Shown here: positions 26,725 to 33,357 of the stretch, one piece after another
Position numbering within the stretch: the stretch's first letter is position 1
Layout: every line of letters starts with the position of its first letter
Source: an uncultured Alphaproteobacteria bacterium
Lineage (GTDB): Bacteria; Pseudomonadota; Alphaproteobacteria; Rs-D84
DNA length: 64,000 nt
Direction: 5' to 3'
Assembly: GCA_946188105.1 (NCBI GenBank)
Contig: CAMHTQ010000002.1
Location: forward strand, 111,973 to 175,972
The notes under the pieces: generated by a model
What the model was told of the DNA's origin: nothing
What the model saw: only the letters and a program-made list of their open reading frames with translations
The model's database searches: none
Translations under genes and position numbers: made by a program

Positions 26725-27999
26725 TTATTTTTTCAACTTGCGGATGCTTTCAAAATTCTTTTTGGTTTTTTTCCATAAACCTGTAATATCTTTTTGAACT
26801 TGTTGACCTAAACCGTCGTCAATCTTGCCACCCCATTCCTCAGCCAAATTTTGTGCTTTTTCTGCCATATAACAAACCAATAACAATGTCAAAATTAAAA
26901 TGATTGCACCACCAATACCATCCATATTTGCACTGGCTGAAATTTGACCTGATGATGCATCTATGACAAAAGATAGCAAGGATATTGCAACCCCAATCGC
27001 AACAGACAAACATACGAAATACAATGCAGCTTTGATAAAACGATTTATCTGTTTTTCTAAACTTTCGCCTTTGAATATTGACAGAAAAGTATTAAATATA
27101 TCGCCGGCAACACCTTTGTAGTTTGTTTTAGCGGTTGTTTCTGCAATAGCGGTAAATGGCAATAACATCATCGCCAAGAATAAATCAGCAATAACCCCCA
27201 GTGCGACAAACAAAAATTTCCAAATACATTTCAAAGCCAAATATGTTACATATAAACCGATAATCACAGAAAATAAACTGACCCCGACGCCACCAACAAC
27301 CCATTTCCAACCAATGCCCATTATTGTTACAAAAAATCCTGACATTTGTGACGGAATACATAATAATCCAGCCGCAGATTCAGCACTGATTGATAATCCA
27401 GCGGGGGTATTTGCCTTGGCATATTGTTCAATCGCCGCACAATTATCAGGAATACTGAATCCAGCCAAACTGGTTACCGATTCCCAAATCACGTGTGATA
27501 TGTATGTTCCTGCGGCCACAATAGGCACCATAATCATCGCAAATGTTTCTGCGATTCCATATTTTAATACAATCAACCATACAGAAATCCAAATACCTTT
27601 GATTAAAATAGTTTTGACGGCTTCTTTGGCATCAGACCCATTTTCAATCAAATTGTATGCTTCGAAAGCAACCCAGAAAGCATAAGCCAACAGCATAAAC
27701 ATCAAAGCAAAACGAACCAACGAAGAATCTAATGCTTTGCCAATACTGGACAATCCGCCCATAAATGCCAAACCAATTTTTGCCTCGATTGGAACAAATG
27801 TTCCCTGTACATTTGATGCTGTTGGACCAAAATTATTTAACTCGTTGGTTATTGTTCCATTAACCAATTCACGATTTTGTGGTGTTGCCCACAAACCATA
27901 ATCACCGATGTCTGTTTCTGCGGCAAAGCCAGGCAATGCGATGAATACAGCAACCACAGCAATCATAATTTTCTTAAAAAGATTAGCCAACATCATCAT
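26725..27999 (-). CDS. virB6: VirB6/TrbL-like polytopic membrane protein, paralog 5 of array (424 aa)
   Basis: Signal peptide, six or more hydrophobic helices, a periplasmic loop with a Cys pair, and a Lys-rich cytoplasmic tail (WKKTKKNFESIRKLKK). This topology is shared with the four neighbouring paralogs, and tandem multiplication is typical of Rickettsiales rvhB6. Confidence 0.55.
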   Translation of the reverse strand: MMMLANLFKKIMIAVVAVFIALPGFAAETDIGDYGLWATPQNRELVNGTITNELNNFGPTASNVQGTFVPIEAKIGLAFMGGLSSIGKALDSSLVRFALMFMLLAYAFWVAFEAYNLIENGSDAKEAVKTILIKGIWISVWLIVLKYGIAETFAMIMVPIVAAGTYISHVIWESVTSLAGFSIPDNCAAIEQYAKANTPAGLSISAESAAGLLCIPSQMSGFFVTIMGIGWKWVVGGVGVSLFSVIIGLYVTYLALKCIWKFLFVALGVIADLFLAMMLLPFTAIAETTAKTNYKGVAGDIFNTFLSIFKGESLEKQINRFIKAALYFVCLSVAIGVAISLLSFVIDASSGQISASANMDGIGGAIILILTLLLVCYMAEKAQNLAEEWGGKIDDGLGQQVQKDITGLWKKTKKNFESIRKLKK

Positions 28000-29495
28000 T
28001 TAATAAACCCATTGTCCTTCAGCCGTTTAACAGCACCGTTCCACCATTTTCCAGGGGCGCGCCAAACCTTTTGTCCCAATTCGTATGTCCATTTACCAAT
28101 ATCAAATTGTTCGCCTGTGGACATATCTGTATTTTCATCCTGTGCCAAAGGTAATTTAACCTTGCTCGCAGGTAACAGTGCATCAATTTTTGGACTTACC
28201 ACATAATAATACAGCAAGAACATACCAAACATAGTTATCAAGAAATCCCATGTGCTGCTCAAATAATCAAATGCCCCCGGGTGCACAGCCTCGATTTGTT
28301 GTTTTTGTTCCAGAAAACATGGTTTGAATTTGTCAGCATCAACCAAACCATCAGCATCTTTGGATTCTGCTTCGCACTTTTTAAATGCATAGATAACAGA
28401 TTCAGATTCCGGTGTTGCATTTGGTGTAACATTTGTTTCCAACAATGGTGGCAATATAGATGTATATCCATCAACTGGACCAGGAAACATCGCATCTGCG
28501 GAATAATAAACAATAGAGAACAGCAAAACAATTTTCAAAGTAATAGATATAACAGAAATCGCCGCCTCGATAACTTTTCCTAATGCTTTACGGAACAGTC
28601 CCGATGCCGCTTTCCAAACTTTTTCGTATGCCGCTGCCGCAATCAATAATGGCAAGAATATAATTACAAAAACAACTTTGAATAAAATAGAAAAAATCTG
28701 AAAGAACAAATCAAAACCAATCACCATAAATGCCAACACCATTAAAAATCCAGAAATCCATGTCAGCATTCCACCGCCCAGCCCCAGCCATGCATAATTC
28801 ATCAAAGAAAATCCACCGGCCGCCCCAGCCAACATTACAGAATATAAATTTCCAAGAACACACATAAATGCCCCAGATACCGCAGCCATAGATCCAGATA
28901 ATTCTGTTGCACCCAAAATAACATTACAATCCGCAGCAGAATTAACCCCCGTTGCAGCCATAGATAAAGCAGCACCAATATATAAAATAGGTGAAATTAA
29001 AATTTCAGAAACAATTTTTAATGCATCTGTGCCACCCATACTTAATGCACCAATCGCGGCACCCGCAATCAAGATTCTTAAACCTAATTTCCATACTGGA
29101 TCAAACCAAGTTTTAAAATCCATATCATTTGCGCTATCCGTATATTCAGCATTTTTCTTTGCTTTTTCCCAGATATATTTAACCGCAGAAATAAACATAT
29201 AAATTGCAAATCCGGCAATCATCAAAATCCACAGGTTATCAACAATCCCAGCCCAAAACATTTCTGATGCCTGGCCCAGCATATTTAACAATTCAACAAC
29301 ATAAGATCCTAAAAACAGGGTGCCAGCATTGCTAACATCATCTTGGGCACCAATGGCGGTCATAAAACTGTCAACCGATGTATATGTTATTGCCGAGCCA
29401 CCAATAGACGAAGACAAATACCAAATCCCCAGCCCAATTGCAATCAGGACACCAACGATTTTAAGTATAATAGCAATCCATTGGAATTTGTTCAT
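27996..29495 (-). CDS. virB6: VirB6/TrbL-like polytopic membrane protein, paralog 4 (499 aa)
   Basis: Multiple TM helices and a K-rich C-tail (GKWWNGAVKRLKDNGFIK). Its stop overlaps the next gene's start by 4 nt, indicating a translationally coupled operon. Confidence 0.55.
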   Translation of the reverse strand: MNKFQWIAIILKIVGVLIAIGLGIWYLSSSIGGSAITYTSVDSFMTAIGAQDDVSNAGTLFLGSYVVELLNMLGQASEMFWAGIVDNLWILMIAGFAIYMFISAVKYIWEKAKKNAEYTDSANDMDFKTWFDPVWKLGLRILIAGAAIGALSMGGTDALKIVSEILISPILYIGAALSMAATGVNSAADCNVILGATELSGSMAAVSGAFMCVLGNLYSVMLAGAAGGFSLMNYAWLGLGGGMLTWISGFLMVLAFMVIGFDLFFQIFSILFKVVFVIIFLPLLIAAAAYEKVWKAASGLFRKALGKVIEAAISVISITLKIVLLFSIVYYSADAMFPGPVDGYTSILPPLLETNVTPNATPESESVIYAFKKCEAESKDADGLVDADKFKPCFLEQKQQIEAVHPGAFDYLSSTWDFLITMFGMFLLYYYVVSPKIDALLPASKVKLPLAQDENTDMSTGEQFDIGKWTYELGQKVWRAPGKWWNGAVKRLKDNGFIK

Positions 29496-29500
29496 TTACT

Positions 29501-31983: not shown

Positions 31984-32043
31984 CTTAAATAATTATTATT
32001 GTAATTATATCATAAATTGGTAAAAATATGTTATAATTAAAAT

Positions 32044-33357
32044 ATGAATTGGTTAAAAAAATTTTGGATAGTTTTTGTATCGTTCCTGCCATTTTCTGCG
32101 GGGGCTCTTTCGCCGATTGTAATTGGTGGCGGAATAATTGGCGGTGGTATAATTGGTTATTCTATATTCAGAACGGTGTCGCCTGTAAATTTATCTGATG
32201 CTATGGCATTTTTTTCTACATGTTGGTCGTGCCAGTTGTTTTCAGATATCGTTGGGACAATGTCCAGTATTTTGCCAGAAACATATCATTACCTGGGTAA
32301 AGTTATAATTCCATTTGGTGTATTTTTAACGGCAATATGGTTCGCATGGATTTTGATAAAAACATACATTGATCCAAATGCTGGCCAATTAAACGGTTGG
32401 AATATCGGGGGCAGATTTGGAGTTCAGGTTATCAAGGTTTTATTTGTTTCTGCATTATTGATTGTTCCATTACCCAGAATGATATCTGGATTGGTTATTG
32501 AACCTGTATTTAACATAGGGTTGTCGATGAATTACACGATGTCTATGACAAATGCTCGTGAAAATTATGCAAATTGTATTATCGCAACCGCCATTGCTGA
32601 CGAGGCATCCATCCATGCAGATAAACAAAAAAGTTCTATAAATGCATTTTCACCACGTTTTCGTCATAATTTGACATGCCAAATTGCAAATGTGCACCAA
32701 ATGACTGGGTTGGGTATGACAATTGGTTGGACAATGCTGAATATGGCATTTAATTACGAGCATATGCATAAATTTTTATGGAAAGTGCCAATCTTTCCAA
32801 ACATCCCACTGCTGTTTACGGGATTATTGATTTTATCATTGTATTTCTTTGCGTTATTACCGATACCACTGTATTTCTTGGAAATAATTGTAAATTTATC
32901 CATAGATTTTATTTTATTACCTTTAACATTGCTCAGTTGGTTATTTAACGGGTGGAAAATATTCCCATCTGGCAACAGTAATATCCAGAAAACAATAAAC
33001 GATGTTATTGCTGGAACATTGGGATTGGCAATGACTGGAATATTCATAACATTTTCTGTAATGGTGTTAAATGCGGTGTTTGGCAACTGGGACGGAATGT
33101 CTGTTATCCAGGCGGCGATTGATCAAAACGATTCGAAATTGTTAATAGATGGTTTAATGACGACAAATGCCAACAAATCCTTGGTAACCATAATATTGAT
33201 GGGTATTTTCATGGCAATGTTTATGGTGATGATACCGGCATTGATAAAATCGTTATTTAACGTAACAATCTCGGATAAATACTATCAAACCGCGAAAAAT
33301 GACCTTTCTACGGTCTGGAATGGGGTAAAAAAGTTTTGGAAATCTGCAAAAAAATAA
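32044..33357 (+). CDS. virB6: VirB6/TrbL-like polytopic membrane protein, paralog 1, divergent (437 aa)
   Basis: STCWSCQLFSDIVG motif matches paralog 3. Multi-TM. Tail VWNGVKKFWKSAKK. It is divergently transcribed from the four-gene array. Confidence 0.55.
   Translation: MNWLKKFWIVFVSFLPFSAGALSPIVIGGGIIGGGIIGYSIFRTVSPVNLSDAMAFFSTCWSCQLFSDIVGTMSSILPETYHYLGKVIIPFGVFLTAIWFAWILIKTYIDPNAGQLNGWNIGGRFGVQVIKVLFVSALLIVPLPRMISGLVIEPVFNIGLSMNYTMSMTNARENYANCIIATAIADEASIHADKQKSSINAFSPRFRHNLTCQIANVHQMTGLGMTIGWTMLNMAFNYEHMHKFLWKVPIFPNIPLLFTGLLILSLYFFALLPIPLYFLEIIVNLSIDFILLPLTLLSWLFNGWKIFPSGNSNIQKTINDVIAGTLGLAMTGIFITFSVMVLNAVFGNWDGMSVIQAAIDQNDSKLLIDGLMTTNANKSLVTIILMGIFMAMFMVMIPALIKSLFNVTISDKYYQTAKNDLSTVWNGVKKFWKSAKK

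Follow-up and report, generated by a model that had tools for sequence, protein, structure and literature searches.

A multicopy VirB6 is listed among the hallmarks of rvh, a type IV secretion system (T4SS) which has been called a 'bona fide rickettsial signature' (PMC11077975). Rickettsia carries five VirB6 proteins, RvhB6a-e, which are about 80% divergent from each other, and the purpose of the five copies has been unexplained since 2009 (PMC2653234). The RvhB6 proteins are 674–1154 aa long, i.e., VirB6/TrbL domains that average 413 aa are embedded in large flanking extensions, and all of them match PF04610/COG3704; an essential Trp of VirB6 is invariant in the conserved transmembrane segment-cytoplasmic region, the array follows rvhB3-rvhB4a, and the rvh genes fall into five islets among housekeeping genes (PMC2653234). 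VirB4, VirB8, and VirB9 are duplicated in the rvh system and there is no VirB5 analogue (PMC11077975). Ehrlichia and Anaplasma have four VirB6 paralogues (PMC7648143; Bao et al., 2009, cited in PMC12857230). In R388 the base of the stalk is a VirB6 pentamer in the inner membrane, topped by a pentamer of VirB5, and this VirB6 base is proposed to belong to the channel and to be the platform on which the pilus grows; TrwI, the VirB6 of R388, has seven long helices of which five are hydrophobic (PMC9259494). DotA, the VirB6 equivalent of the Dot/Icm system in Legionella, is also pentameric (PMC12857230). Here these systems are compared with an array of five genes, A to E, found in a 64,000-nt stretch of DNA (the window; positions 111,973 to 175,972 of contig CAMHTQ010000002.1, assembly GCA_946188105.1) from an uncultured alphaproteobacterium of the lineage Rs-D84. 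Most likely the five proteins are highly divergent, minimal members of the VirB6/TrbL superfamily that were anciently duplicated and supply VirB6 to a scattered chromosomal T4SS, perhaps as a hetero-oligomer. A preliminary description had read them as VirB6/TrbL-like paralogues comparable to those of Rickettsiales; its observation is partly confirmed here and its interpretation partly supported.

Four of the genes lie in tandem on the minus strand, in the order of transcription D (30703–31983, 426 aa), C (29501–30703, 400 aa), B (27996–29495, 499 aa), and A (26725–27999, 424 aa), and E (32044–33357, 437 aa) is transcribed divergently from these on the plus strand. The list of open reading frames (ORFs) agrees exactly with the preliminary description in coordinates, in lengths of 400–499 aa and in the layout of four tandem genes plus a divergent one. 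A genome scan gave 80 loci, each from a different species, nearly all of them metagenome-assembled genomes (MAGs) from gut and rumen labelled Candidatus Enterousia or uncultured Alphaproteobacteria. All five genes are found in 77 of the 80 loci, and the order F<-E<-|D->C->B->A->, which includes a sixth conserved gene, F, overlooked in the preliminary description, is the same in essentially every sufficiently long locus. Each of A–E constitutes a 1:1 orthologous family, whose members throughout the clade share 40–77% identity with the copy in the window, yet the pairwise identity among A–E is only 20–24%. Because the families are separately orthologous and at the same time this distant from each other, A–E are, as judged from the alignments, an ancient fixed set of paralogues, and the same two observations rule out a recent tandem duplication. 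Homologues numbered 798 for C and 740 for D, all of them named 'hypothetical', and no precomputed Pfam domain was available for C.

Homology among the five was assessed with HHalign by profile–profile comparison of the 80-sequence family alignments. The highest probabilities were obtained for C–E (97.6%, 341 columns), A–D (94.7%, 284 columns), and A–E (90%, 347 columns), followed by B–C and D–E (both 77%), A–B (69%), A–C (63%), and B–E (55%). Seven of these eight linked pairs were collinear over 162–350 columns, the exception being A–C with 63 columns. As hydrophobic proteins can give spurious profile matches, every comparison was also run against a column-reversed template, which gave at most 2.8% probability, a score of 27 and no more than 64 columns, and non-paralogous neighbours in the related loci, membrane proteins included, gave at most 2.2%. 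Because the links far exceed both controls, the A–E families form, at the level of sequence profiles, one connected homology network. The paralogy claimed in the preliminary description thus holds by profile–profile comparison, but not at the level of similarity that had been implied, given the pairwise identities above.

The assignment to VirB6/TrbL does not come from direct family matches. Neither PF04610 nor the NCBIfam VirB6 models matched any of A–E at E ≤ 1. The preliminary description had named the lack of such a match as an outcome that would refute its own VirB6 interpretation; three independent lines nevertheless support it, i.e., the fold, transitive sequence homology, and genomic context together with third-party annotation. 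First, structure models of C and D consist of long alpha-helices throughout and show the fold of VirB6, in which about seven long helices, most of them hydrophobic, are bundled. VirB6 was the top match for both modelled paralogues in two different programs, and the best two of 350,542 chains in Foldseek were the VirB6 chains 8rtd_L and 8rt9_F, with probabilities of 0.99 and 0.96. Second, when 1.84 billion representatives were searched exhaustively by hmmsearch, the C profile found only 111 proteins, and PF04610 is present in 10 of the 36 distant full-length matches, with P0200, P0221, P0222, P0205, and P0217 at or above the gathering cutoff. The PF04610 core is collinear with residues ~170–290 of C and ~200–335 of B, and a conserved Pro-containing hydrophobic helix sits within it. 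The B profile strongly matched proteins that had been retrieved independently with the C profile (P0228 with 82 bits, P0207 with 72, and P0209 with 67) as well as the PF04610 core of P0222, P0217, and P0225, and the E profile matched PF04610-positive proteins, e.g., P0221, P0213, and P0222. Third, VirB9, VirB10, and probably VirB8 are encoded on the same chromosome (see below), and the NCBI name of a clade member, an orthologue from the lineage of a related contig (L083), is 'type IV secretion system protein'. Because fold, transitive homology, and context with third-party annotation agree, we conclude from sequences and models that A–E belong to the VirB6/TrbL superfamily in the evolutionary sense and lie beyond current family models. 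The VirB6/TrbL-like call comparable to rvh is thus borne out by fold, transitive profiles and the homology network, and not by PF04610. UniRef gives one D orthologue, P0339 (UniRef100_A0A940DDK2), the name 'TrbL/VirB6 plasmid conjugal transfer protein'; this is not reproduced by current Pfam-A, as neither P0339 nor the 41 other D orthologues matched PF04610 at E ≤ 0.1. The preliminary description had also named a transporter as an alternative outcome. A–E gave only noise-level matches of 10–13 bits to transporter families in Pfam and NCBIfam at E ≤ 1 and no transporter ranked above VirB6 in the fold searches, so that the reading as an MFS protein, an ABC permease or another transporter found no support and is rejected.

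The features of the individual proteins are shared to a different extent than first described. By a Kyte–Doolittle scan, which is a crude estimate of transmembrane (TM) helices, A–E each have five or more distinct hydrophobic segments, in line with the polytopic nature that had been claimed, and the C-terminal tails are Lys-rich as described, with 8–10 Lys and Arg among the last 40 residues, and contain Trp. Signal peptides are not shared by all: cleavable-looking ones are found in A, D, and E, B has an N-terminal hydrophobic anchor only, and C has none. A cysteine-containing loop was likewise attributed to all five, and conserved Cys pairs are present in the central loop of A (Cys187/Cys214), B (190/212), D (Cys175/Cys190), and E (Cys178/Cys212) but not in C. 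The pair in A is invariant in the family alignment, and B has two invariant pairs, 190/212 and 374/393. The loop pairs may form periplasmic disulfides, and by the positive-inside rule the basic C-terminal tails would be cytoplasmic. A Pro in a hydrophobic helix is invariant and alignable across the families (A P281, B P282, C P233, D P273, and E P293), in C within an invariant FAFFFP motif, and the basic Trp-containing tail is alignable between families as well. Several Trp residues are invariant in the alignment of each family. Both of the CWSC motifs that had been reported are present, VQCWSCPVF at residues 13–21 of C (CWSC at 15–18), preceding the first TM helix, and STCWSCQLF at residues 58–66 of E (CWSC at 60–63). 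The consensus of the B family, the most conserved of the five paralogues, also has a CxxC (ANGCFLCGY) that aligns with QCWSC of C, although the window copy of B has lost it.

Similar detached arrays in housekeeping surroundings occur in two contigs of other uncultured alphaproteobacterial lineages, L082 and L083. L082 has four tandem paralogues of 438–492 aa, two of them with a direct PF04610 match, between mutS and recA/dnaB. In L083 the tandem paralogues number five, with 514–858 aa each and the first PF04610-positive, and its gene order differs from that of Enterousia, with a C-like gene first and a B-like gene fourth. A CxxC just before the first TM helix is found in all nine proteins of the two contigs, and when the distant relatives are aligned both of its cysteines prove invariant or almost invariant. 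On this account the CxxC is, by sequence comparison, an ancestral signature of the clade that was lost in the Enterousia families A and D, and the common ancestry that had been drawn from the CWSC motifs of two copies was right but understated. A homology search with the alignment of the PF04610-positive relatives returned only orthologues of the L083 lineage and no named Rickettsiales VirB6. Small two-TM proteins with basic tails are encoded inside or at the head of these arrays (L082, 9771–10004, 77 aa; L083, 9734–10000, 88 aa). They could be VirB3- or VirB2-like, a reading that no family match supports, and no equivalent small two-TM gene was seen in the Enterousia module. Two of the distant PF04610-positive proteins carry additional regions, P0205 (980 aa) a Peptidase_M23 domain and an RHS repeat besides TrbL, and P0222 (494 aa) an SseC-like (translocator) N-terminal region besides TrbL, which suggests 'extended VirB6' proteins with effector-like or translocator-like modules.

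A survey of T4SS genes covered the 64-kb window and the 21-kb loci of the relatives. The preliminary description had placed virB8-10 about 26 kb from the array, and at this distance homologues of VirB10/TrbI (59386–61902, minus strand, 838 aa; PF03743, E = 8.9e-14, with a phmmer match to plasmid VirB10) and VirB9/CagX (61926–63434, minus strand, 502 aa; PF03524, E = 8.2e-23, 37.5% identity to plasmid TrbG/VirB9) are found. Upstream of virB9, a probable virB8 on the minus strand is cut by the window end (63455–64000; phmmer match to plasmid VirB8 at E = 1.2e-4), and the Pfam VirB8 match of this fragment, E = 0.0086, is below the cutoff. There is one virB8, one virB9, and one virB10 in the window, and no virB3, virB4, virB11, or virD4 was found in it. 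VirB4, VirB11, and VirD4 of a Sphingosinicella plasmid T4SS were used as probes; the protein in the 'VirB6 position' of this plasmid is soluble and Ala-rich, hence useless as a VirB6 reference. A homologue of the coupling protein VirD4 was found near the array in only two of the 80 loci, one gene from F in L055 (3449–5698) and a few genes away in L075 (15–1316), and is the sole other T4SS gene near the array among these loci. The TrbI domain of VirB10 covers only residues 417–620 and the CagX domain of VirB9 residues 48–288, both proteins being unusually long because of large unannotated extensions, and virB10 is followed not by virB11 or virD4 but by two small ORFs (115 and 111 aa) without a family match.

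How close does this bring the array to the rvh system? As in Rickettsia, and in Anaplasma and Ehrlichia with VirB6-1 to -4, the VirB6 paralogues are five or four in tandem and about 80% divergent, and the multicopy hallmark is present in that five paralogues are fixed across about 80 species. Further common points are a chromosomal T4SS, a probable one here, in islets among housekeeping genes and an alphaproteobacterial host with a reduced genome, and the full length of 400–499 aa seen here matches the average of 413 aa for the RvhB6 domain (PMC2653234). On the other hand the array proteins are domain-only, compared with 674–1154 aa, and PF04610-negative where all RvhB6 are PF04610/COG3704-positive. 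One copy is divergent and paired with the conserved gene F, and virB3 and virB4, whose absence before the array had been noted, are missing from the window and from within 10 kb of the array in the 80 loci. Neither the extended RvhB6 architecture nor a position like that after rvhB3-rvhB4a is therefore seen in the array, and the host belongs under GTDB to the order Rs-D84 and not to Rickettsiales (PMC12306168). The earlier comparison with rvh accordingly holds for copy number and scattering and fails for protein size, Pfam detectability, and the preceding virB3-virB4. The closest structural relative is TrwI/VirB6 of R388 (7O3V, 8RT9, and 8RTD), the best structural match of the C and D models over 231–246 of 261 residues, which shares the long-helix, mostly hydrophobic bundle; R388 also has, as the genome studied here probably does, a T4SS with VirB8, VirB9, and VirB10. 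The sequence identity to TrwI is however 8–9%, and the paralogues are about 1.5 times longer and have signal peptides on three of them, loop Cys pairs, CxxC, and Lys-rich tails. Moreover, R388 has a single TrwI gene, which gives a homo-pentamer, in a contiguous conjugative operon with VirB5, compared with five paralogues here. DotA of the Legionella type IVB system far exceeds these proteins in size (its chain in 9NGY has 857 residues), and no sequence similarity between it and the array proteins was detected.

On sequence grounds D-C-B-A most likely form a translationally coupled operon, in which D is the first and A the last gene, and E-F a second unit. In the window A and B overlap by 4 nt, B and C are separated by a 5-nt gap and C and D overlap by 1 nt, which makes the 4-nt overlaps and 1–5-nt gaps of the preliminary description roughly right, and among the junctions of the 80 loci, overlaps of 4 or 1 nt are seen most often. 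The divergent intergenic region between D and E (31984–32043, 60 bp, not assigned to a strand), AT-rich as read from the sequence, presumably holds both promoters, and the corresponding spacer is short in the related loci (median ~48 bp). Within it lies TGTTATAAT (32029–32037), an extended -10 consensus that stops 6 nt short of the ATG of E; on inspection of the sequence no Shine-Dalgarno sequence is visible upstream of this ATG, and the mRNA from which E is translated may be leaderless or nearly so. A promoter scan also placed a promoter-like site on the minus strand at 32024–31995. The promoter and terminator scan gave the same counts as shuffled sequence and no regulatory claim is based on it. 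Gene F (33424–33936, plus strand, 170 aa) has the same orientation as E and is next to it in 75 of the 80 loci, with a spacer of 68 bp in 55 of the 75. Within the module F is the best conserved (mean column identity 77%; relatives 71–91% identical to the window copy), and it is unrelated to A–E (HHalign ≤ 0.2%). F matched nothing in Pfam, NCBIfam, or PDB sequences, lacks a signal peptide and shows no clear TM helix.

These observations can be arranged into a model. An ancient duplication would have produced the five single-copy orthologous families that became fixed across Ca. Enterousia/Rs-D84, and one short divergent promoter region would drive expression of the D-C-B-A operon and the E-F unit. 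A–E most likely supply the VirB6 function of a chromosomal T4SS that is distributed in islets, with virB8-9-10 26 kb off and virD4 elsewhere. Because VirB6 and DotA assemble as pentamers, it is conceivable that the paralogues co-assemble into a hetero-oligomeric stalk base, possibly, as the simplest model, in a 1:1:1:1:1 ratio. By analogy with rvh (PMC11077975), such a T4SS would probably be a domesticated delivery system for effectors or toxins rather than one conjugating plasmids, since the chromosomal position is fixed in about 80 species and no relaxase is found nearby.

A number of observations weigh against this model or parts of it. Besides the missing direct matches of the window proteins to PF04610 and the NCBIfam VirB6 models, only 2 of 112 orthologues matched PF04610, both weakly (best E = 0.0029) and both among the 35 orthologues of B, compared with none of the 42 for D and none of the 35 for A. 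The five family profiles found nothing among PDB sequences, and tblastn of B and of the PF04610-positive relative P0200 against 72,556 plasmids gave no match. The pairs B–D and C–D are at the HHalign background. The models of C and D are of moderate confidence, with a predicted local distance difference test (pLDDT) of 66–68; the Foldseek E-values are 6e-3 to 8e-3, none of them ≤ 0.001, with TM-scores of about 0.3; for D the margin of VirB6 over a designed helical repeat is small (13.0 vs. 12.3); and all-helical bundles are prone to spurious structural matches. The VirB6 link of A consists of HHalign matches to D and E and of weak hmmsearch matches. The VirB6 assignment is hence made with the greatest confidence for C, E, and B, with a little less for D, and with the least for A, as it is linked only through D and E. 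With respect to function, virB3, virB4, and virB8-10 were never found within 10 kb of the array in the 80 loci, the assembly of a hetero-pentamer is pure inference, and L082 and the Anaplasmataceae have four paralogues and not five.

A more specific version of the model can be put forward tentatively, namely that A–E are obligate, non-interchangeable subunits of an asymmetric 1:1:1:1:1 VirB6 stalk base or protochannel, with F as an assembly or gating partner. If true, this would be the first T4SS with a C5 core made of five different proteins and would explain the five RvhB6 of Rickettsia, and the domain-only version would be an ideal minimal model. In a literature search no paper combining VirB6 with 'heteropentamer' was found, and none linking Rs-D84 to type IV secretion. 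A–E could also be genuine T4SS VirB6 proteins that are used alternatively, with different homo-pentamers or mixtures serving different substrates or regulatory states. This would agree with the hypothesis that duplicated rvh components autoregulate secretion (PMC11077975), with a number of paralogues that is four in L082, Ehrlichia, and Anaplasma, and with the location of E on a separate transcription unit. The overlapping stop and start codons in D-C-B-A and the strict retention of all five genes in 77 of 80 loci however favour co-expression and non-redundancy, and the four paralogues of Ehrlichia are reported, by the title of the original study, to interact with one another (Bao et al., 2009, cited in PMC12857230), so that alternative use deserves consideration although it appears rather unlikely. 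Improbable, to a further degree, is a role outside the T4SS, as the preliminary description had suggested, for proteins that nonetheless derive from VirB6, e.g., as a stand-alone inner-membrane channel or uptake device working with F. It draws on the detachment of the array from other T4SS genes within 10 kb in about 80 genomes, on its housekeeping surroundings and tight linkage to the conserved F, which is not T4SS-like, on sequences that have drifted past PF04610 detection and on the fact that these genomes lack standard transporters (PMC12306168). Against such a role, a T4SS with VirB8, VirB9, and VirB10 requires a VirB6, for which the window and the 21-kb loci offered no other candidate, scattered islets are normal in rvh (PMC2653234), VirD4 abuts the module in L055, and the VirB6 fold is kept over nearly the full length of TrwI. 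That A–E are an unrelated helical membrane family, matched spuriously in structure and profile through long hydrophobic helices, is very improbable and largely refuted: the lack of a direct match to the hidden Markov model, the moderate-confidence models, the Foldseek E-values above 1e-3, and designed helical repeats scoring nearly as high as VirB6 for D would speak for it, but VirB6 comes out on top for two independently modelled paralogues in two programs, a path of sequence matches alone leads to PF04610-positive proteins over a collinear core, composition artefacts are excluded by the reversed-alignment control, non-paralogous membrane neighbours reach at most 2.2%, and both NCBI and UniRef annotate clade members as T4SS/VirB6.

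The genomic setting is that of a reduced chromosome. The Ca. Enterousia group corresponds to the GTDB order Rs-D84, with genomes of roughly 0.75–1.0 Mb (PMC12306168), and one complete relative chromosome (L026) is 958,618 bp. As the relatives are Ca. Enterousia of this order the host lies outside Rickettsiales, although some of their records (L072 and L076) bear the NCBI label 'uncultured Rickettsiales bacterium'. In Rickettsiales the 16S gene is typically separate from 23S-5S. The window has a complete linked rRNA operon (16S, tRNA, 23S, and 5S) at 3120–8055, which argues against a simple Rickettsiales placement. Right after the rRNA operon, at 8099–13127, follow five consecutive ORFs (180–345 aa) without a Pfam match in the part of the window with the lowest GC content (32–34%). 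Two large ORFs of 739 and 757 aa on the plus strand (18549–20768 and 21659–23932) are without a Pfam match at E ≤ 0.001; the first keeps its synteny with the array in 30 of the related loci and the second in 48. Weak matches, near or below the cutoff, to DUF2661 and DUF2659 are found at 50375–51214 and 57021–57686. The array itself has housekeeping neighbours, dnaQ and uvrD upstream and a HAD hydrolase gene, rmuC, def, fmt, truA, comEC, pyrG, and pyk downstream. The homologue of the ComEC/Rec2 competence channel (38789–40753, minus strand; PF03772, E = 6e-53) lies 5 kb from the array, and thus DNA uptake machinery co-exists with the probable T4SS in this reduced genome.

A minimal, cryptic array of five VirB6 members in gut Rs-D84 is not categorically new but extends the rvh hallmark. 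The multiplication of VirB6 reaches beyond Rickettsiales, i.e., to Rs-D84 of gut and rumen and to at least two other uncultured lineages, and as the clade is missed by current Pfam and NCBIfam models its genes are annotated 'hypothetical' in hundreds of MAGs. A strict set of five genes for the bare domain also offers a small and tractable system in which a hetero-oligomeric VirB6 platform could be tested. Finally, the array suggests that these gut bacteria with their reduced genomes rely on a secretion machine that is contact-dependent, with implications for their lifestyle.

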